Source: a virus
IMG/VR virus record: IMGVR_UViG_3300008952_002488
Span: 96,001-160,000 of that record
DNA: 64,000 bases
Reading direction: 5' to 3' (one strand)
This document shows, piece after piece, positions 1 through 23,802 of the stretch. Both the position numbers and the translations under genes were made by a program. Each line of letters begins with the position of its first letter. Positions within the stretch are counted from its first letter, which is position 1. The notes under the pieces are model-generated. The model was not told the origin of the DNA, did not search any database, and saw only the letters and a program-made list of their open reading frames with translations.

Positions 1-759
1 AAAGTCAAACGCAAAGGTAAGCGACCCTATGGAATCCGTCCACGTTTATCAAAAAAAGAAACTATAAAACAAAAGATTAGAAGAAAGAAGGCTGCCATAA
101 AGGCAGGTACTTATGATCCTAATAGTGAAGAGAGATTTACATTTCACGACAGCGACTTACGTTATAAACATATAGCCCCAGTGCAAAAAGAAAACACGAC
201 GGCTGCTGTGTTTTTTATTATGGACGTGTCAGGATCTATGACAAAGGCAAAAAAATATCTTGCTCGAAGCTTTTTCTTTCTCCTTTATCAATTTCTAAAT
301 CATCGTTATTCGGCGATAGATGTTATTTTTGTGTCCCATACTGCGGAAGCCAACGAAGTAAACGAGGAACAATTTTTTACACAGGTTCCTAATGGCGGAA
401 CACTTGTCTCTACTGGATTAAAAAAGGTTGAAGAGATTATTGAGAAACGATATCATCCTAATAACTGGAACTTGTATACTTTTTATTGTGGGGATGGAGA
501 CAATTGGCCAATCGACAATAAAGAATCTCTAGCCAACTTTCGAAAGTTAAAAGATATAAACCAAATGATGTGTTACACCGAGATTGGAGAAATGAGAGGA
601 GTAAGTGATGCTTACTTATTTTCAGGTAAAGCAGAAAAGAAATTATGGGACTGGCTAAAGCTGATAGAAGATAAAGACTTTAAGCGAATAAGGATTGTGA
701 ACCATAAGGACATATGGGCTTCCTTTAAAAAATTGTTCGGGGGAAATAATAATGTCTGA
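1..759 (+). CDS. yeaH: YeaH/YhbH (DUF444) vWA-domain protein, 5' truncated by the window edge
   Basis: Frame is open from base 1 (KVKRKGKRPYGIRPRLSKK...FHDSDLRY); contains the family motifs FIMDVSGSM, GGTLVSTG, YHPNNWNLY and DGDNW; lies next to spoVR and prkA. Confidence 0.9.
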   Translation, partial: KVKRKGKRPYGIRPRLSKKETIKQKIRRKKAAIKAGTYDPNSEERFTFHDSDLRYKHIAPVQKENTTAAVFFIMDVSGSMTKAKKYLARSFFFLLYQFLNHRYSAIDVIFVSHTAEANEVNEEQFFTQVPNGGTLVSTGLKKVEEIIEKRYHPNNWNLYTFYCGDGDNWPIDNKESLANFRKLKDINQMMCYTEIGEMRGVSDAYLFSGKAEKKLWDWLKLIEDKDFKRIRIVNHKDIWASFKKLFGGNNNV

Positions 760-2068
760 TTGGTCTATGGAAGAGCTTCATGAATGGGATACAAAGATTT
801 GTGCGCTTGGCCAAGCAATGGATCTTGACTGGTATCCTATTGAGTATGAAATATGTGACTATAAAGAAATGATTGGACATATGGCATACACAGGGCTACC
901 CACACATTATCGCCATTGGTCATATGGAAAAGCATTTGATAGAATCCAGACAGAATACAATTTGGGAATGTCTGGTCTGCCTTATGAGATGATTATTAAT
1001 TCCAACCCGAGCATCTCATATCTCATGACCGAAAATCCGATGGCCACCCACATACTTACAATGGCACATTGTGTCGGTCACAGTGACTTTTTTAAGAACA
1101 ACCGTATGTTTGCTGAGACCGGGGCGGATACCGCCTTAGACCGTTTTAAAGCTGCCGGTAAACGTATCAAAAAATACATGGAAGACCCGAACATTGGTAT
1201 AGACAAAGTAGAGAAAATTATTGATGCCTGTCACGCCATCCAATTTCAAGTTCCGAGAACGCCGGGAGTTAAACGAAGAGATCCCAAAAAACTGAAAAAC
1301 TATTATCAACAACTGATGCTTAATGATAAGACCGGCTATTGGGACAATTTTGATTTAGAAAAAATACCGCTAGAGCCTGATCAAAATGTTCTTAGGTTTA
1401 TTGCTGATCACAATCGATTTCTTGAGAATTGGGAAATAGACATAATCAACATTATTGAGCAGCAATCACGTTATTTTGTTCCACAAGCTTGTACTAAGAT
1501 TATGAATGAGGGTTGGGCTTGTTTTATACATGAAAAAATAGTTAATGCTCTTAGGCTTCCCGATGAATATCACATTTCTTTTATTCGACTACATAACCAA
1601 GTAGTAAGGGCACATCTGGGAAGAATAAACCCCTACCACCTAGGCTTTAAGATGTTTAAATATATTGAGAAACACAAAGGATTTGAAGAATGTATGCGTA
1701 TAAGAGAAACTTGTAACGATGAGACATTTTTAAAAACACATCTTAACTATGATTTATGTAAGGAACTGAATTTGTTTAGTTATGCATTTAATAAGAGCGA
1801 AGGGATCAATAGAATAACTGAAGTTTCTGCGGAAGATACTTGGAGAACTATTCGGGACGACCTAATTAGGAATGTAGGTCTCAATTCTATACCTGTTATA
1901 GTTGTGGAAGAATTGCTACAAGATGGCACACTAATTTTAAAACATGTGCATGATGGAAGGGATCTAGAATTGACAGAAGCAAATAAAGTGTTTGAGCACA
2001 TTAACAATTTGTGGGAAGGTGGGGTAAGATTCACTACAATAATAGAAGACGATCTTTGGGAGTTTTGA
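752..2068 (+). CDS. spoVR: SpoVR/YcgB family protein
   Basis: Motifs GLPTHYRHWSYGK, YEMIINSNP, MAHCVGHSDFFKNN, TKIMNEGWA and NPYHLG. Confidence 0.93.
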   Translation: MSDWSMEELHEWDTKICALGQAMDLDWYPIEYEICDYKEMIGHMAYTGLPTHYRHWSYGKAFDRIQTEYNLGMSGLPYEMIINSNPSISYLMTENPMATHILTMAHCVGHSDFFKNNRMFAETGADTALDRFKAAGKRIKKYMEDPNIGIDKVEKIIDACHAIQFQVPRTPGVKRRDPKKLKNYYQQLMLNDKTGYWDNFDLEKIPLEPDQNVLRFIADHNRFLENWEIDIINIIEQQSRYFVPQACTKIMNEGWACFIHEKIVNALRLPDEYHISFIRLHNQVVRAHLGRINPYHLGFKMFKYIEKHKGFEECMRIRETCNDETFLKTHLNYDLCKELNLFSYAFNKSEGINRITEVSAEDTWRTIRDDLIRNVGLNSIPVIVVEELLQDGTLILKHVHDGRDLELTEANKVFEHINNLWEGGVRFTTIIEDDLWEF

Positions 2069-2071
2069 TAG

Positions 2072-4015
2072 ATGACAAGAAATAACAAATCTGATAAGTT
2101 TCTGAAACTTGTTGGCAAACACCGTGAAAAAAAGAAAAAGAATAAGTTTCGTGGAACATTGTCCGATTATCTTAAAATAATAGAAGAAGACATTGGGGTT
2201 TCTAAACTCGCCCACCGAAGACTATTTGATGCCATCATAAACCATGGCATTACAAAGATGTCAAAATCTTCGGATCGTTGTAATAAACTTTTCAACGGCG
2301 AGAAGATAAGAACATATGATTATTTCCAAAGCAAGTTTTTTGGAATGGAGAGATCTCTAGCAAAGATTATGAGGTTCCTCCGTTCAGCAGCACTGAAGGG
2401 AGAAGAAAGTCGCCAGGTTCTTTTACTGCTGGGCCCAGTTGGTGCTGGCAAGTCTGCACTGATGGAACACATTAAAGGAGCCCTGGAAGAATGTGATCCA
2501 ATGTATCACATTGATGGGTGTCCTGTCCACGAGGAACCCCTCCACCTCATTCCTCGCTCTCTTCGGGAGGAGTTTCAAAAAATATATGGGATTCGCATTG
2601 AGGGGGACTTGTGTCCTGTTTGTAGGTTTAGATTAAAGGAAGAATTTGGCAGCGATTATACATCAATGCCCATTACGCAGTCATCTTTTTCTGTTCGTGG
2701 TAGACGTGGTGTAGGAGTTGTTCCACCAATGGACGCAAATAGTCAGGATGTGACAATTTTGGTCGGCAGCGAAGATATATCCAAATTAGATTTATACCCC
2801 GAAGATGACCCCAGGGTCCTTTCTTTAAACGGGGCGTTTAATGTTGGAAATAGAGGTATCGTAGAGTTCGTTGAAGTCTTTAAAAACGAAATTGAATTCT
2901 TACACACCATGATTACTGCCACTCAAGAGAAAGCTGTTCCTTCGCCAGGAAAAGGTCCCATGATATATTTTGATGGGGTTATCTTGGCGCACTGTAATGA
3001 GGCGGAATGGAACAAGTTTAAGTCAGAAAATACAAATGAAGCTATCTTGGATAGAATAGTTAGAGTAAATGTGCCGTACTGTTTGGAAGTAACTGAAGAA
3101 ATAAAGATTTATGAAAAAATGTTGGGACTATCTGACTTCGATGGTCACATTGCACCGCATACACTTGAGATTGCTTCGATGTTTGCTGTGTTAAGTCGAT
3201 TGCGTCCGTCCAATAAAGTAGATGCTCTTACTAAGATGAAATTATATGATGGTAAAGATGTGATCGAAAAGGGGCATGTAAAGAAAATAGACATTAATGA
3301 CTTGAGAGATGAGGCACGAGATGAAGGGATGACCGGGATCTCTACAAGATTCATCATGAAAGCAATTGATTCGGCATTGTCAGATAGTGAGAAAAATATG
3401 GTAACCCCCATATCCATCCGAGAAACGCTTATAAAGCAAGTCAAAGACCAAATAGTGGTAGAAGACGATAGAAATCGGTACCTTGATTTCCTTGGAAAGA
3501 CCCTTCACGATGAATATTTGAATATCTTAGAGAAAGAAATCACAAAAGCATTCGTTTCTGCCTATGATGAACAGGCAGAAGCCTTATTTAACAACTATCT
3601 GGACCATGCAGAAGCATATGTGAACATGTCCACTGTTAAAGATGCCATCACAAACGAAGAAATAACACCAGATGACAAATTTATGGAGTCAATTGAGGAA
3701 CAAATTGGAATTACTGGTACTTCTAAAGAGAATTTCCGAGTTGATATCACTGCATACATGTTTTCTAAGCTTCGGAGAGGCGAAAAAGTCGATTGGCAGT
3801 CGTATGCGCCACTCAAAGAGGCAATTGAGAGTAAATTGACCTCTTCAGTCAAGCAAATTTCACGAATTGTGACCAAATCCAAGTCTAGAGACAAAAAACA
3901 GCAAGGAAAGTACAATGAAATGGTAAAAACCTTGATTGATGAGTATGGATACGACGAAAACTCAGCAGAAGAGGTCATAAAGTTCGCCGCAAACAACTTA
4001 TGGCGAGATAGTTAG
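2072..4015 (+). CDS. prkA: PrkA/YeaG AAA+ ATPase (annotated serine protein kinase)
   Basis: Walker A GPVGAGKS, Walker B region GNRGIVEFVEVFK, NEAILDRI, GMTGISTRF; 647 aa. Confidence 0.95.
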   Translation: MTRNNKSDKFLKLVGKHREKKKKNKFRGTLSDYLKIIEEDIGVSKLAHRRLFDAIINHGITKMSKSSDRCNKLFNGEKIRTYDYFQSKFFGMERSLAKIMRFLRSAALKGEESRQVLLLLGPVGAGKSALMEHIKGALEECDPMYHIDGCPVHEEPLHLIPRSLREEFQKIYGIRIEGDLCPVCRFRLKEEFGSDYTSMPITQSSFSVRGRRGVGVVPPMDANSQDVTILVGSEDISKLDLYPEDDPRVLSLNGAFNVGNRGIVEFVEVFKNEIEFLHTMITATQEKAVPSPGKGPMIYFDGVILAHCNEAEWNKFKSENTNEAILDRIVRVNVPYCLEVTEEIKIYEKMLGLSDFDGHIAPHTLEIASMFAVLSRLRPSNKVDALTKMKLYDGKDVIEKGHVKKIDINDLRDEARDEGMTGISTRFIMKAIDSALSDSEKNMVTPISIRETLIKQVKDQIVVEDDRNRYLDFLGKTLHDEYLNILEKEITKAFVSAYDEQAEALFNNYLDHAEAYVNMSTVKDAITNEEITPDDKFMESIEEQIGITGTSKENFRVDITAYMFSKLRRGEKVDWQSYAPLKEAIESKLTSSVKQISRIVTKSKSRDKKQQGKYNEMVKTLIDEYGYDENSAEEVIKFAANNLWRDS

Positions 4016-7111: not shown

Positions 7112-7140
7112 TTGACCATCCCCTAATCCGTGCTATTATA
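7112..7140 (+). promoter_or_regulatory. sigma70-type early promoter upstream of a non-coding region
   Basis: TTGACC 7112-7117, 16-nt spacer, TGC-TATTAT; shares CCCCTAATCC with the 4096 promoter. Confidence 0.7.
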
Positions 7141-7294: not shown

Positions 7295-7392
7295 TGAACT
7301 GATCATTTGGATAAGACTTCCCTGACCTGTCTCATCAGCGGGTAAATAAAAGACATAAGATGATGGATTGATTATCCTGATTCGGTTCACCA
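7295..7392 (+). ncRNA. Unknown structured RNA B: bulged long hairpin ending in ACCA
   Basis: TGAACTGATCA/TGATTCGGTTCA and GGATAA/TTATCC helices; inner TGTCT/AGACA with possible CATC/GATG pseudoknot. Confidence 0.45.
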
Positions 7393-7447
7393 CCGGAGCC
7401 TAATTGGAAGGTTGAAAATGGCGGTTCGATTCCGTCCTCCGGTTTCA
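7392..7447 (+). ncRNA. tRNA-like mini-RNA lacking an anticodon arm
   Basis: Acceptor ACCGGAG/CTCCGGT, D-like hairpin CCT-AATTGGA-AGG, T-arm GGCGG-TTCGATT-CCGTC, 3' T-TCA; followed by a T7 run. Confidence 0.6.
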
Positions 7448-7455
7448 TTTTTTTC

Positions 7456-7484
7456 TTGACTTCCTTTGTTTCCATGATAATATA
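7456..7484 (+). promoter_or_regulatory. sigma70-type early promoter
   Basis: TTGACT, 16-nt spacer, TGA-TAATAT; leader TAAGGGGGAGAGATATG is nearly identical to that of the 4145 gene. Confidence 0.75.
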
Positions 7485-7983: not shown

Positions 7984-8012
7984 TTGACACCTGCCAAGGT
8001 CGTGATAATATA
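7984..8012 (+). promoter_or_regulatory. sigma70-type early promoter
   Basis: TTGACA, 16-nt spacer, TGA-TAATAT; AGGAGG SD before ATG 8030. Confidence 0.75.
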
Positions 8013-8225: not shown

Positions 8226-8540
8226 ATGGCTATTGCAAATCCCGAAGTTGAGTTTCACCTTCAAGACTTTGTTGGCGAGTGTGCAGAAATGCTCAACGAG
8301 CACTATAAAGTGAGACTTCCCAATTTGAGTGCTCCCGAGGTCAAAGTGTCCGAGGGCGGCAAGTTTTACAAGGTCTATAAAGATGAAGGTGAATACCACA
8401 AGAGTGTTTGGTTCTTCGTCAGTAAAGAGGACGGCTTGATTTGGAAGGCTGCCTCTTGGAAGGCTCCTGCTCGGAACTTCCCTCGTGGAAATATCCTTGA
8501 AGACAAAGCCAAAGACGTGATTGGGATCTACGGACTGTGA
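8226..8540 (+). CDS. conserved phage hypothetical protein (KAASWKAPA motif)
   Basis: Start re-called to ATG 8226; motif SVWFFVSKEDGLIWKAASWKAPARNFPRGNI resembles small proteins of aquatic phages. Confidence 0.7.
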   Translation: MAIANPEVEFHLQDFVGECAEMLNEHYKVRLPNLSAPEVKVSEGGKFYKVYKDEGEYHKSVWFFVSKEDGLIWKAASWKAPARNFPRGNILEDKAKDVIGIYGL

Positions 8541-8668
8541 GTTCGTTACTGCATACTCTTTTTGGGCTTTCCTTTGTTGGCGGGTCTATGTATTTGCTTT
8601 ATACAGCAATTCTAAGAGAAAGAGAAAGGCAGATGAATATGAAAAAGAAGAATACCCGGCGAAGATAA
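8537..8668 (+). CDS. small 43-aa membrane protein
   Basis: GTGA overlap with the previous stop; MSSLLHTLFGLSFVGGSMYLLYTAILRERERQMNMKKKNTRRR (TM helix plus basic tail). Confidence 0.55.
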   Translation: MSSLLHTLFGLSFVGGSMYLLYTAILRERERQMNMKKKNTRRR

Positions 8669-8832
8669 GCGTTACGGGTAAACCGGAGCCGATCTGGCAG
8701 GCAGCTAGAAAACGCCAGCGTCCCTACCTCCAGTAACCACATACCTTGGAAGAGTTGCGTGTGGAAAACGGTTTGTAGGGTTAGATACAAAACTAACAGG
8801 AATCCCGTAATCGTTCGGGTGAAAACTCTTCA
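8669..8832 (+). ncRNA. Unknown multibranch RNA with two predicted pseudoknots, directly upstream of tRNA-Gly
   Basis: TTACGGG/CCCGTAA, TAAACCG/CGGTTTG, CTGGC/GCCAG, CCACAT/GTGTGG and GTTAG/CTAAC helices; crossing pairs CCCTAC/GTAGGG and GAAGAGTT/AACTCTTC. Confidence 0.55.
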
Positions 8833-8838
8833 AAACTT

Positions 8839-8914
8839 GCGGATGTAACTCAGATGGTAGAGTGTTTGGTTGCCAATCAAAATGTCGTGGGTTCGAATCC
8901 CATCATCCGCTCCA
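8839..8914 (+). tRNA. tRNA-Gly(GCC)
   Basis: Full cloverleaf, GCGGATG/CATCCGC acceptor, loop TT-GCC-AA, U73, encoded CCA. Confidence 0.95.
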
Positions 8915-8917
8915 AAT

Positions 8918-8994
<77 letters not shown>

Positions 8995-9004
8995 AGGGGT
9001 TAAG

Positions 9005-9643
9005 ATGTTACGAGTCTTAGGAAAATTACCGAGAGAATTAGGAGTCGCTGTCAGCGGCGGACCAGACTCCATGGCAATTCTAGACTTTCTCAGCAACAAC
9101 CATGAGGTAACCGCAGTCTATTTTGACCACGGCACAGACTTCGGACGAAAATGTAAAAGATTTGTAAAGAACTTTTGCGATAATAGAGATATTCCTCTTG
9201 TTGTAGGTATTAATTATAATGGGTGTCCTCCGAAAAAATCGCTTGAAGAGCATTGGCGTGATGAACGCTATAAGTTCTTTCACAGTTTCGACATGGCTAT
9301 TGTTTCGGGTCACAACTTAGACGATGTGATTGAGTGGTTTTTATTCTCTTCTTTGCACGGACAGGGTAAACTTATGCCCTACAAGAATCAAAACGTTTAT
9401 AGACCGTTTATCTCCACCTCTAAACGCTCGCTAGAAGATTGGTGCGAACGTAAGGATGTGCCGTTTATGATTGACCCAGGGAATACCGATAGAAAGTTTA
9501 TGAGAAGCATTATCAGAAACGATATTATGCCTCATGCTCGCAAGGTAAATAAAGGGCTCGAAAAAACATTTAAAAAACTTGTAGAAAAGGAATATAATAA
9601 CTGTGGGGGATTAGCTCAATTGGTCAGAGCACTCGACTCATAA
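9005..9643 (+). CDS. tilS: tRNA(Ile)-lysidine synthetase TilS, catalytic domain only
   Basis: PP-loop VAVSGGPDS, EEHWRDERY, GHNLDDVIE, RPF, DPGN...RSIIR; start re-called to ATG 9005 after tRNA-Arg; 3' end overlaps tRNA(CAT). Confidence 0.9.
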   Translation: MLRVLGKLPRELGVAVSGGPDSMAILDFLSNNHEVTAVYFDHGTDFGRKCKRFVKNFCDNRDIPLVVGINYNGCPPKKSLEEHWRDERYKFFHSFDMAIVSGHNLDDVIEWFLFSSLHGQGKLMPYKNQNVYRPFISTSKRSLEDWCERKDVPFMIDPGNTDRKFMRSIIRNDIMPHARKVNKGLEKTFKKLVEKEYNNCGGLAQLVRALDS

Positions 9644-9681
9644 TCGATAGGTTCTGGGTTCAAGTCCCAGGTCCCCTACCA
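9605..9681 (+). tRNA. tRNA(CAT), most likely tRNA-Ile2 (lysidine)
   Basis: Cloverleaf; anticodon arm TCGA-CT-CAT-AA-TCGA resembles Ile2; lacks the fMet GGG/CCC anticodon stem; adjacent to tilS. Confidence 0.85.
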
Positions 9682-22097: not shown

Positions 22098-22423
22098 GGG
22101 GGTAACCGGTATCGATTGATGGGAAAATAGAAAAGGTGCAAGGGTGAGGGAAGCGTGGCTCACTAAAAACGCTTAAAACTTTAATCGCCAATGACGATTT
22201 CGAAATGGAGATGGCAGCTTAAAAACCTGACCTCCCATGAGGCGACGGCAGCCAATAAACAGAAAGCCGTATTTGGGTGTCCTAAGTGCTTTTGATTGTT
22301 TTAGCCGCAATAAAACGATCTAGTCAAGCGGGCTGTCTGACGAAAAAAACAGACCCAACCTTGTGAATGACCCCTTCTATAGAACTAGGCAAGACGGGAG
22401 TTCGATTCTCCCTACCTCCACCA
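22098..22423 (+). ncRNA. ssrA: tmRNA; tag reading frame 22187-22222 encodes ANDDFEMEMAA
   Basis: GGGGGTA/TACCTCC acceptor with G3-U, T-arm GGGAG-TTCGATT-CTCCC, ACCA end, pk1-like region, resume codon GCC. Confidence 0.95.
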
Positions 22424-22446
22424 GCCGCCTTCGGGCGGCTTTTTTC
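22424..22446 (+). terminator. Rho-independent terminator after tmRNA
   Basis: GCCGCC-TTCG-GGCGGC-TTTTTT. Confidence 0.9.
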
Positions 22447-22494
22447 TTTCTCTCTCAGCTATTTACTTTAGAAGTGTTCCTGAAAGGAAAAAAT

Positions 22495-23802
22495 ATGACA
22501 AAGACATTGATTTTAGACACAAACGTTTATCTCACAGAGGTAAGCTCGTTATTTGCATTCGGAAAAAGTGATATTGCAATCCCAACAATTATATTGGATG
22601 AAATAGATAAACACAAACAAAGGCAAGATACGGCGGGATTTAATGCTAGAATGATGAACCGTGTTTTAGATAATCTGCGGAGAAAAGGTAGTTTATTTGA
22701 GGGAGTTTCTCTAGGAAGAGGGAAAGGGAAATTATATGCGGCACAATATGATCCCCGCTATATGCCGGCAGGAATGTCCACCCAAGATTCAGACAATAAA
22801 ATAATTGCCATAGCGATTCGTCTCAAAATGGAAGGCAAAGAAATAGCAATCGTCTCCCGTGATCTGAATATGAGAGTAAAATGTGATGCTTTTGGTTTAG
22901 AATGTCATGATTATCAACCACAAAAGGTGATTAAATCTGTAGAGAAGCTATTTGACGGATGTGAAGAGGTTCTAGTTGAAGGAGAGGTTATTGACGATTT
23001 TTACGAAGATAAAGAGATTCTTTTAGAAGAACAAAATATCAAACTGTTTCCAAATCAATATTTGATTTTAAGATCAGAAAAAGATACCAAAAAATCAGCC
23101 CTGTGTCGCTTTTTAAATTATGAAAAACCCTTGAGAAAAGTATATTCTTACCAAGATATATGGGGACTTTCAGCTAACAATAAAGAGCAGCAGTTTGCTA
23201 TGGATCTCTTATTTGATCCGTCGGTTTCTATAGTTTCGCTGACAGGACAAGCAGGAACTGGCAAAACACTCATAGCTGCTGCTTGTGGTCTAGAACAAGT
23301 CTTGAACAGTACAAGATCTTCGGGAGGTTACGACAAGTTAATAATTACTAGACCTGTACAGCCAATGGGTAGAGATATCGGTTTTTTACCAGGGACCCTG
23401 GAAGAGAAAATGATGCCATGGGTTGCCCCCATCAGGGATAATCTTGAGCATTTATTTGGGGACAGAACTGCGCTTGATCTGCACATGGATCAAGGAACCG
23501 TCGAAATTGAAGCAATGACCTATATTCGAGGTCGTTCCATCTCCAACGCTTTCATGATCGTTGACGAGGCTCAGAATTTAACACCGCATGAATTAAAGAC
23601 TATAATAACCAGGGTCGGACATGGAACTAAATTAGTGCTTACAGGCGATATTCAGCAGATAGACAATTCTTACGTTGACGCAGTATCCAATGGATTGACA
23701 TATGCAGTTGAGAAATTTAAACAATATGACATTTCTGGTCACATAACCCTTATTAAGGGAGAGAGATCTAAATTGGCAACATTGGCATCGGAGATTTTAT
23801 GA
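22495..23802 (+). CDS. phoH: PIN-PhoH (PhoH2) RNase/ATPase
   Basis: PIN ILDTNV...DEID...SDNKI...SRDLNMR; PhoH GQAGTGKT, IGFLPG, YIRGRS, DEAQN, GDIQQID; start re-called to ATG 22495. Confidence 0.92.
   Translation: MTKTLILDTNVYLTEVSSLFAFGKSDIAIPTIILDEIDKHKQRQDTAGFNARMMNRVLDNLRRKGSLFEGVSLGRGKGKLYAAQYDPRYMPAGMSTQDSDNKIIAIAIRLKMEGKEIAIVSRDLNMRVKCDAFGLECHDYQPQKVIKSVEKLFDGCEEVLVEGEVIDDFYEDKEILLEEQNIKLFPNQYLILRSEKDTKKSALCRFLNYEKPLRKVYSYQDIWGLSANNKEQQFAMDLLFDPSVSIVSLTGQAGTGKTLIAAACGLEQVLNSTRSSGGYDKLIITRPVQPMGRDIGFLPGTLEEKMMPWVAPIRDNLEHLFGDRTALDLHMDQGTVEIEAMTYIRGRSISNAFMIVDEAQNLTPHELKTIITRVGHGTKLVLTGDIQQIDNSYVDAVSNGLTYAVEKFKQYDISGHITLIKGERSKLATLASEIL

Follow-up and report, generated by a model that had tools for sequence, protein, structure and literature searches.

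A conserved pseudoknotted RNA between a mini-ORF and the first tRNA of a gene cluster in uncultured T4-like marine phages

Results

The locus and its relatives

The DNA analyzed here, a stretch of 64,000 nucleotides that we call the window, comes from an IMG/VR virus record of 171.9 kb and carries a tRNA cluster whose order is tRNA-Gly(GCC), tRNA-Arg(UCU), a PP-loop (TilS-like) gene at 9005, and three further tRNAs, with gaps of 1–3 nt between neighboring tRNAs. The first of these, tRNA-Gly(GCC), lies on the plus strand at 8839–8914 according to both ARAGORN and Rfam, and RNase P presumably cuts at its 5′ end. The element that is the subject of this report occupies the space between this tRNA and a TAA stop codon read in the same strand at 8666–8668. 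An earlier, sequence-only reading of the window had proposed a structured RNA between a stop codon ending at 8668 and a tRNA-Gly beginning at 8839, and both borders were confirmed. The PP-loop gene is short (PF01171, 3.7e-29; window 9005–9681), and its open frame extends to 9643, into a tRNA(CAU) at 9605–9681; the two are probably a phage TilS and tRNA-Ile2 pair. The nearest TilS relatives are 39–40% identical and occur in Pseudomonas jumbo phages and uncultured phages.

On the upstream side the usual neighbor is a DUF7717 protein (PF24835, 1.1e-11; 8226–8537 in the window), the stop codon of whose gene abuts, in some relatives, the ribosome-binding site of the mini-ORF described below. Farther away, adjacent SpoVR-like and PrkA-kinase genes at 752–4012 (E 6e-116 and 2e-143) make a pair of host-like stress or sporulation genes in a T4-like marine phage. 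The phage also has a tmRNA at 22098–22423 (Rfam, 79.5 bits) with the tag ANDDFEMEMAA, and the frame of a PIN-PhoH gene (22363–23799) starts within its 3′ part.

A search of IMG/VR with the TilS-like protein returned 30 loci, 19 of which carry a copy of approximately 8650–8832 at 82–90% identity, always directly 5′ of the first tRNA of the cluster. Scanning metagenome contigs with a two-anchor pattern gave at least 120 matches, and nhmmer on marine viral and metagenome contigs gave at least 84 distinct full-length homologues, which were aligned (alignment A2); all counts out of 84 refer to these homologues, among the matches listed. The element is thus widespread in marine metagenomes. Three loose scans of viral contigs with patterns of 14–16 bases added one new homologue (L038) among the matches listed, the other new matches listed being nearly all due to chance, and 34 pattern matches in bacterial genomes were all assigned to chance by nhmmer. 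There was no blastn match to 8227–8838 in a collection of cultured phages, and in more distant TilS-bearing phages (L022–L029) the covariance model detected no element and nothing analogous was seen upstream of tilS.

The element-bearing phages have the Gp23 capsid family, for which reason we call them T4-like. Complete relatives have genomes of 175–190 kb with the element once per genome, an apparent second copy in one relative being a 15-bit match that lacks hairpin P3 and is regarded as noise. Among the 84 homologues 8660–8831 is kept at about 80–90% identity and the DNA just upstream of the module cannot be aligned, which indicates that the element is under purifying selection.

A mini-ORF at the 5′ border

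The TAA at the 5′ border ends a small plus-strand open reading frame at 8639–8668, encoding MKKKNTRRR, which is preceded by a Shine-Dalgarno-like purine run read in the sequence at 8624–8629, 9–10 nt 5′ of the ATG. All 84 homologues have such an in-frame ATG ORF of 5–12 codons, mostly 9, ending in a C-terminal [K/R][R/H]R followed by an invariant UAA, and a GGA, GAG or AGG core is found 5–14 nt 5′ of the ATG in 82 of the 84. In the window the mini-ORF is also the tail of a 43-codon frame, 8537–8668, of which only the last nine codons are conserved. The encoded peptides range from MNKRR, a form of only five residues found in 15 of 82 peptides, to METSKIGKTRRR, the commonest nine-residue form being MKKKYTKRR; the N-terminal part is variable and the C-terminus follows the pattern T/S/N-[K/R]-[R/H]-R.

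Codon usage within this conserved end differs between its two halves. At codon -4, Thr is written as ACT (18), ACC (20) and ACA (22), the Lys or Arg of codon -3 uses six codons, and Tyr and Asn at codon -5 each occur with both of their codons. These synonymous and conservative changes at positions -3 to -5 point to selection at the amino-acid level and hence indicate that the mini-ORF is translated. Codon -2 is CGA in 79 of 82 and CAC in 3, and codon -1 is only AGA or CGA, about half of the homologues ending CGA-CGA; this restriction suggests an added constraint at the level of RNA or decoding. The distance from the UAA to the first hairpin is likewise fixed, with a 6-nt linker at 8669–8674 and all 84 sequences free of indels in A2 columns 27–48. 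Given known ribosome footprints, a ribosome terminating at this UAA would reach the first hairpin with its front edge.

Fold and covariation

When the element was folded from its single sequence, the minimum free energy (-43.8 kcal/mol) did not stand out from that of shuffles (z = -0.27), and the helices of the sequence-only reading, judged on this alone, do no better than chance; the fold draws its support from the 84 homologues only. RNAalifold together with counts of pairs gave one consistent fold, an RNA of about 165 nt with four hairpins, P1 to P4, and one pseudoknot, in which 94% of the cells of A2 are paired. Its covariation score is 0.116, compared with 0.061 for shuffles and at most 0.048 for slid partners, and covariation exceeds both controls for P1, P3, P4 and the pseudoknot. 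On a rough tree the covarying pairs switch state many times with almost no half-changed intermediates.

All parts lie on the plus strand. P1 (8675–8685, pairs 8675–77/8683–85) is a 3-bp hairpin with a 5-nt loop, NUAAA, supported by covariation: 8675:8685 is GC in 70, AU in 11 and CG in 3, always paired, with up to nine switches on the tree and no intermediates. The first base of its loop varies among G, U and C. P2 (8694–8718, pairs 8694–98/8714–18) is a 5-bp hairpin with a conserved loop of 14–15 nt, paired in 100% and nearly invariant, its sole changes being two U-G. There is a possible extra contact, 8688:8702, with AA in 78 sequences and GC in the other 6. The P2 loop was considered as a mimic of tRNA-Ile2 with its CAU anticodon and rejected, CAU being replaced by CAC, CAA, CAG and other variants.

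The hairpin P3 (8722–8780, strands 8722–42/8759–80) is long and irregular, with a base at 8722–27/8775–80, a top at 8737–42/8759–64, and covarying pairs in its middle. The base, CCCUAC/GUAGGG, is 97% paired; its inner pairs show mismatches, and compensatory changes are absent. The top is paired in 100%. In the middle, the one part of the fold with competing registers (two of them), 8734:8768 is UA in 74 and CG in 10, 8736:8767 is AA in 47 and CG in 36, and 8730:8772 shows all four Watson-Crick types as well as U-U. The loop of P3 supplies the 5′ strand of the pseudoknot, 8749–8756, which is joined to a 3′ strand at 8824–8831, with 100% of cells paired. One pair of the pseudoknot is exchanged from A-U to G-C in a clade of five sequences, and at four other positions there are 11 one-sided changes, every one giving G-U. 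A single-stranded joiner, J3/4 (8781–8801), conserved in its first half and variable in its second, leads to P4 (8802–8820, pairs 8802–07/8816–20), which is variable in sequence and length, with a longer stem in one clade. All five P4 pairs covary, for example 8802:8820 (GC 58, AU 26) and 8807:8816 (AU 52, GC 13, CG 9). Many of the unpaired bases of the element are invariant.

About half of the helices proposed in the sequence-only reading are retained in this model. Those that became P2, the top of P3 and the pseudoknot (8749–56/8824–31) were found paired throughout, the last with the compensatory exchange and the G-U changes just described. The pairing of CCCUAC with GUAGGG also stands, as the nested base of P3 and not as the crossing helix it had been taken for: it crossed only with a proposed helix 8679–85/8769–75, which is 77% paired, has one pair kept in only 3 of 84, and was dropped. 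A long-range closing helix, 8672–78/8804–10, is paired in only 52% of cells and a hairpin at 8780–84/8793–97 in 64%, and neither was kept; bases of these discarded helices belong to covarying local hairpins, at 8675:8685 and 8802–07/8816–20. With a single crossing helix supported, the proposal of a double-pseudoknot ribozyme was an over-reading, even as the location of the RNA was right. That reading had also missed both the conserved, translated mini-ORF that forms the 5′ border and the regular start, among homologues, of a tRNA or tRNA-like gene of varying identity 5–7 nt after the pseudoknot.

The tRNA junction and transcription context

An A/U-rich spacer, 8832–8838 on the plus strand, separates the pseudoknot from the first tRNA as its 5′ leader. 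ARAGORN calls a tRNA after the pseudoknot in 79 of the 84 homologues, with a spacer of 5 nt in 2, 6 nt in 62 and 7 nt in 15, and the last base of the spacer (-1) is T/U in nearly all. This spacing is kept whatever the identity of the tRNA, which is Arg-UCU in 36, Val-UAC in 31, Lys-UUU in 9 and Gly in 3, and, being close to the 1–3-nt gaps inside the cluster, it places the element as if it belonged to the cluster. When genes uncalled by ARAGORN are included, 82 of the 84 have a tRNA or tRNA-like gene starting 5–7 nt after the pseudoknot; in L405, L329 and L343 the tRNA-shaped genes have an odd T arm or extra bases, and there the leading tRNA is possibly atypical or in decay. The related homologues L382 (719–1051) and L371 (53–386) have lost the tRNAs, and the ribosome-binding site and start of tilS come about 8 nt after the element, which argues that the tRNA junction is not indispensable.

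In 74 of 78 homologues the 300 nt upstream contain no sigma-70-type promoter. Nor was a terminator-like site found on the plus strand at 8540–8994 in the window, where P4 is followed by GAAA and not by a U run. The module, with no promoter or terminator of its own, is thus transcribed within an early unit. Near-consensus promoters of sigma-70 type (TTGAC-N16-TAnTAT with an upstream TG) at 7112–7139, 7456–7483 and 7984–8011 mark early transcription units; the last of these is the nearest upstream of the element, with no terminator between, and feeds its unit. Lying on the strand of the tRNAs, abutting their cluster and lacking a promoter of its own, as do T4 RNAs of the RNAC and RNAD kind, the module is positioned like the first member of a stable-RNA cluster.

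Known families and coding tests

The claim that this RNA belongs to no known family was borne out by Rfam 15, whose coverage includes self-cleaving ribozymes, riboswitches, tmRNA, SRP, 6S, RNase P, raiA, GOLLD and ROOL. On the window only tRNAs and the tmRNA at 22098 pass; a permissive scan of 8400–9100 with E up to 10 gave nothing meaningful on 8669–8832, and neither did scans of the element in 14 homologues with E up to 5. The element is therefore an RNA family uncatalogued in Rfam, and the earlier suggestion of a new structured RNA joined to a tRNA cluster holds, the element being conserved, covarying and unmatched in Rfam.

The element was also compared with individual classes. An HDV-like or other double-pseudoknot class requires two nested crossing helices and one (8749–56/8824–31) is supported. 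Neither ARAGORN nor the Rfam tRNA model calls a tRNA or tRNA-like gene in 8669–8832. A possible pairing of ACCGGAG with CUCCAGU is confined to the window, 8685 covarying with 8675 and 8688 being A in 78 of 84, and a 9-mer that the element has in common with a mini-tRNA at 7392–7447 is likewise particular to the window and clashes with covarying pairs. A tmRNA or message-like domain is opposed by the lack of any RF00023 match on the element and by the mini-ORF having its own Shine-Dalgarno sequence and ATG. For a leader-peptide transcription attenuator the short, translated leader ORF with potentially regulatory codons is present in 84 of 84, in the form of the fixed terminal Arg codons, and the intrinsic terminator is absent from the plus strand at 8540–8994. 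A lambda-type nut boxB, with a GNRA-like pentaloop beginning in G and ending in A, does not fit a P1 loop that starts with G, U or C on a stem of only 3 bp, and by the boxA consensus that we assumed, the only candidate for nut boxA is a CUCUU stretch that is paired in the pseudoknot, 140 nt after P1.

A protein-coding reading was rejected. The three forward frames across the element are free of stops in 8, 0 and 8 of the 84 homologues, and in the reverse direction no more than 49 of 84 lack stops, with no minus-strand ORF spanning the element in the window. Several homologues have 1-nt insertions or deletions, and the variability of alignment columns lacks a codon periodicity fitting an open frame. 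The sequence-only reading had named protein-level conservation of an overlapping ORF at 8521–8736, together with helices that do not covary, as the outcome that would speak against an RNA; the helices covary, and the frame of that ORF is interrupted within the element by one or more stops in 76 of 84 homologues, its upstream part being unalignable.

Matches of the pseudoknot strands (8749–8756 and 8822–8833) to E. coli 16S rRNA were noted, 10 bases in sense at positions 4–13 and 11 bases in antisense at positions 4–14. Shuffled sequences match 16S somewhere at such length in 22% (sense) and 3.4% (antisense) of trials and the site was picked after the fact, and the matches are therefore probably due to chance. 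In the joiner, 8782–8789 equals the octamer of the 16S 790 loop.

Discussion

The present study identifies a real, conserved, structured RNA in a clade of uncultured T4-like marine phages. Positions 8639–8838 form one conserved module composed of a translated mini-ORF with a good initiation site, 6 nt, a pseudoknotted RNA of about 165 nt, and a tRNA 5–7 nt farther on. The explanation that we favor, as a serious possibility held short of conviction, is that the element becomes a stable small RNA, or serves the early mRNA upstream of it as a protective 3′ cap, its own 3′ end being made by RNase P and tucked in by the pseudoknot. The RNA would be matured like a member of the tRNA cluster, with the RNase P cut at the first tRNA generating the 3′ end and leaving a tail of 5–7 nt, and the pseudoknot would hold the 3′ region in a compact fold that resists 3′-to-5′ exonucleases. 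A ribosome terminating at the UAA would cover the 5′ border and reach P1 with its front edge, and in doing so may prevent mispairing between the RNA and the variable sequence upstream and leave a shorter untranslated stretch.

Consistent with the production of such a stable RNA or cap are the conservation of the element, its covariation and non-coding character, its spacing from the tRNA, the lack of signals of its own, its single copy per genome, and the precedent of T4. This explanation leaves unaccounted for the fixed last two codons of the mini-ORF (CGA, then AGA or CGA) and the fixed 6-nt gap, and the two homologues without a tRNA between element and tilS, L382 and L371, also tell against it. 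The invariant unpaired bases exceed what a mere block to exonucleases would need, which suggests that they serve a particular partner or chemistry.

Early T4 transcription is sensitive to Rho when it is untranslated, and an alternative that we regard as unlikely, but place first among the alternatives, is that the element is a cis-acting antitermination or anti-Rho leader. The nascent RNA, perhaps with help from the ribosome on the mini-ORF, would let RNA polymerase traverse the long untranslated tRNA block as far as tilS without terminating. There is one element per genome, heading a non-coding tRNA-tilS-tRNA operon in an early unit without an internal promoter, it is kept even where tilS follows directly, and its invariant unpaired bases may be suited to binding a protein or the polymerase. 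Against this, no boxA was recognized, CUCUU being paired in the pseudoknot, the variable first base of the P1 loop means that no GNRA-like loop of boxB type is conserved, and a fixed distance of 5–7 nt to the tRNA would be needless for such a role. Known antitermination RNAs (HK022 put, the boxA and boxB of lambda nut, the boxB-boxA-boxC of rRNA leaders) resemble the element in being structured RNAs early in a unit, before a long stretch to be read through. They differ from it in that the element lacks boxA and a conserved boxB-type loop, has four hairpins and a pseudoknot, and abuts a tRNA.

The alternative that ranks next, which we consider distinctly improbable, is that the mini-ORF is a minigene that senses translation or sequesters tRNA. 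The CGA-(A/C)GA-UAA end would pause ribosomes or shed peptidyl-tRNA-Arg, and the RNA 6 nt beyond would tune or answer the pause, either coupling the tRNA operon to the supply of Arg-tRNA or depleting the tRNA of the host. The length of 5–12 codons, the good Shine-Dalgarno sequence and the Lys-rich early codons agree with this, as do the limitation of the last two codons to CGA and AGA where codon -3 uses six codons, the invariant 6-nt gap from stop to hairpin, and the frequency of tRNA-Arg(UCU) as first tRNA (36 of 79, the commonest). A spacing of 6 nt from stop to hairpin also resembles that of structures that act on a decoding ribosome. There is, however, no terminator and, in RNAalifold and the pair counts, no evident mutually exclusive fold to serve as a read-out, about half of the homologues end in CGA-CGA, which the phage tRNA-Arg(UCU) does not read, sequestration would hit the phage's own tRNA too, and a search of the phages for a peptidyl-tRNA hydrolase or a protein with an RF-1 domain found that they encode neither. 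Minigenes of 3–8 codons ending AGA-AGA-UAA have been shown to accumulate peptidyl-tRNA-Arg4 and to inhibit translation (PMC2490762). The mini-ORFs share with such toxic minigenes, among them lambda bar and artificial AGA-AGA-UAA constructs, a very short ORF, a good ribosome-binding site, and Arg codons before UAA (PMC2490762), and differ in being longer (mostly 9 codons), in their selection at the amino-acid level, in ending half of the time in CGA-CGA, and in their fixed distance to a conserved RNA, drop-off being hypothetical here.

A bolder reading, to which we assign a low probability, is that of a ribosome-coupled device, as opposed to a passive stable RNA, in which the mini-ORF parks a terminating ribosome or frees an Arg-rich micropeptide at the edge of the RNA and so acts on the translation apparatus. 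Its possible actions include trapping of tRNA-Arg or of ribosomes, formation of a peptide-RNA particle, and mimicry of the 5′ end of 16S rRNA, the last suggested by the match of the pseudoknot strands to E. coli 16S positions 4–13. If true, this would add a novel type of element, for phage takeover or for regulation, at the head of a tRNA-TilS operon.

Taken separately, the particle is doubtful in a high degree: here the tiny arginine-rich peptide is predicted, by analogy, to bind the adjacent RNA as a minimal ribonucleoprotein. The arginine-rich RNA-binding motifs of Tat-TAR and N-boxB resemble the mini-ORF peptide and provide a lead, synonymous codon changes leave the amino acids of the C-terminus, T/S/N-[K/R]-[R/H]-R, conserved, and the peptide would be released 6 nt from a conserved hairpin. 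Less compatible with such binding are the 15 of 82 peptides with only five residues, the variability of the N-terminal part, and the lack of a conserved GNRA-like pentaloop in P1.

Least probable among the explanations that accept an RNA, and in our view very unlikely, is a putative self-cleaving ribozyme, whose cut would release the tRNA precursor or generate the 5′ end of the RNA itself. Phage HDV-like ribozymes adjoin tRNAs, a parallel of position, and the compact pseudoknotted fold with its many invariant unpaired bases is of the expected kind; yet no ribozyme family in Rfam matched the window (E up to 10) or the 14 homologues, neither a candidate site of cleavage nor a known catalytic core was recognized, and RNase P already supplies a cut at the tRNA. 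Finally, that the element is no RNA, and is instead a protein-coding stretch or a set of chance helices in a spacer, agrees with a frame after the UAA that stays open for 60 codons in the window and with a single-sequence fold no better than shuffles, and it is refuted almost to certainty by the strong and repeated covariation and by the coding tests, that frame being open in only 8 of the 84 homologues, with 1-nt indels and no fitting codon periodicity.

Returning to the stable RNA or protective cap, the closest precedent is in T4 itself, where RNAC and RNAD, two small RNAs without a known role, are transcribed from the tRNA region (PMC3014915). The likeness lies in small non-tRNA RNAs co-transcribed within a tRNA region of T4 type, the phage that carries the element being T4-like. 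The search of the phage collection with 8227–8838 found no sequence relation to RNAC or RNAD, and the element differs further in heading its cluster, carrying a translated mini-ORF, and ending in a pseudoknot. In the eukaryotic RNAs MALAT1 and MEN-beta, RNase P cuts at the tRNA-like mascRNA and the 3′ end is protected by a triple helix. By analogy, the tRNA downstream of the element is a tRNA-shaped unit at which RNase P would make a folded-back 3′ end; those RNAs rely on a U-rich/A-rich triple helix, whereas the element has real tRNAs and a loop-to-tail pseudoknot, with the processing itself being predicted. GOLLD and ROOL are likewise structured RNAs of unknown role that often lie beside phage tRNAs, and they are several times larger than the element, which has no match to them or to any other family in Rfam.

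The extra small RNAs of phage tRNA clusters have had unknown roles since T4 RNAC and RNAD, and the element provides a clean and well-bounded case among them, with an unusual build in three parts, the mini-ORF, the pseudoknotted RNA and the tRNA junction. The family merits an entry in Rfam, as its 200 bases would otherwise be annotated as a spurious ORF or as empty spacer. It bears on whether phages use tRNAs as RNase P punctuation for stable RNAs, on whether a loop-to-tail pseudoknot protects the 3′ ends so made, and on why a ribosome would be delivered to the edge of a non-coding RNA.
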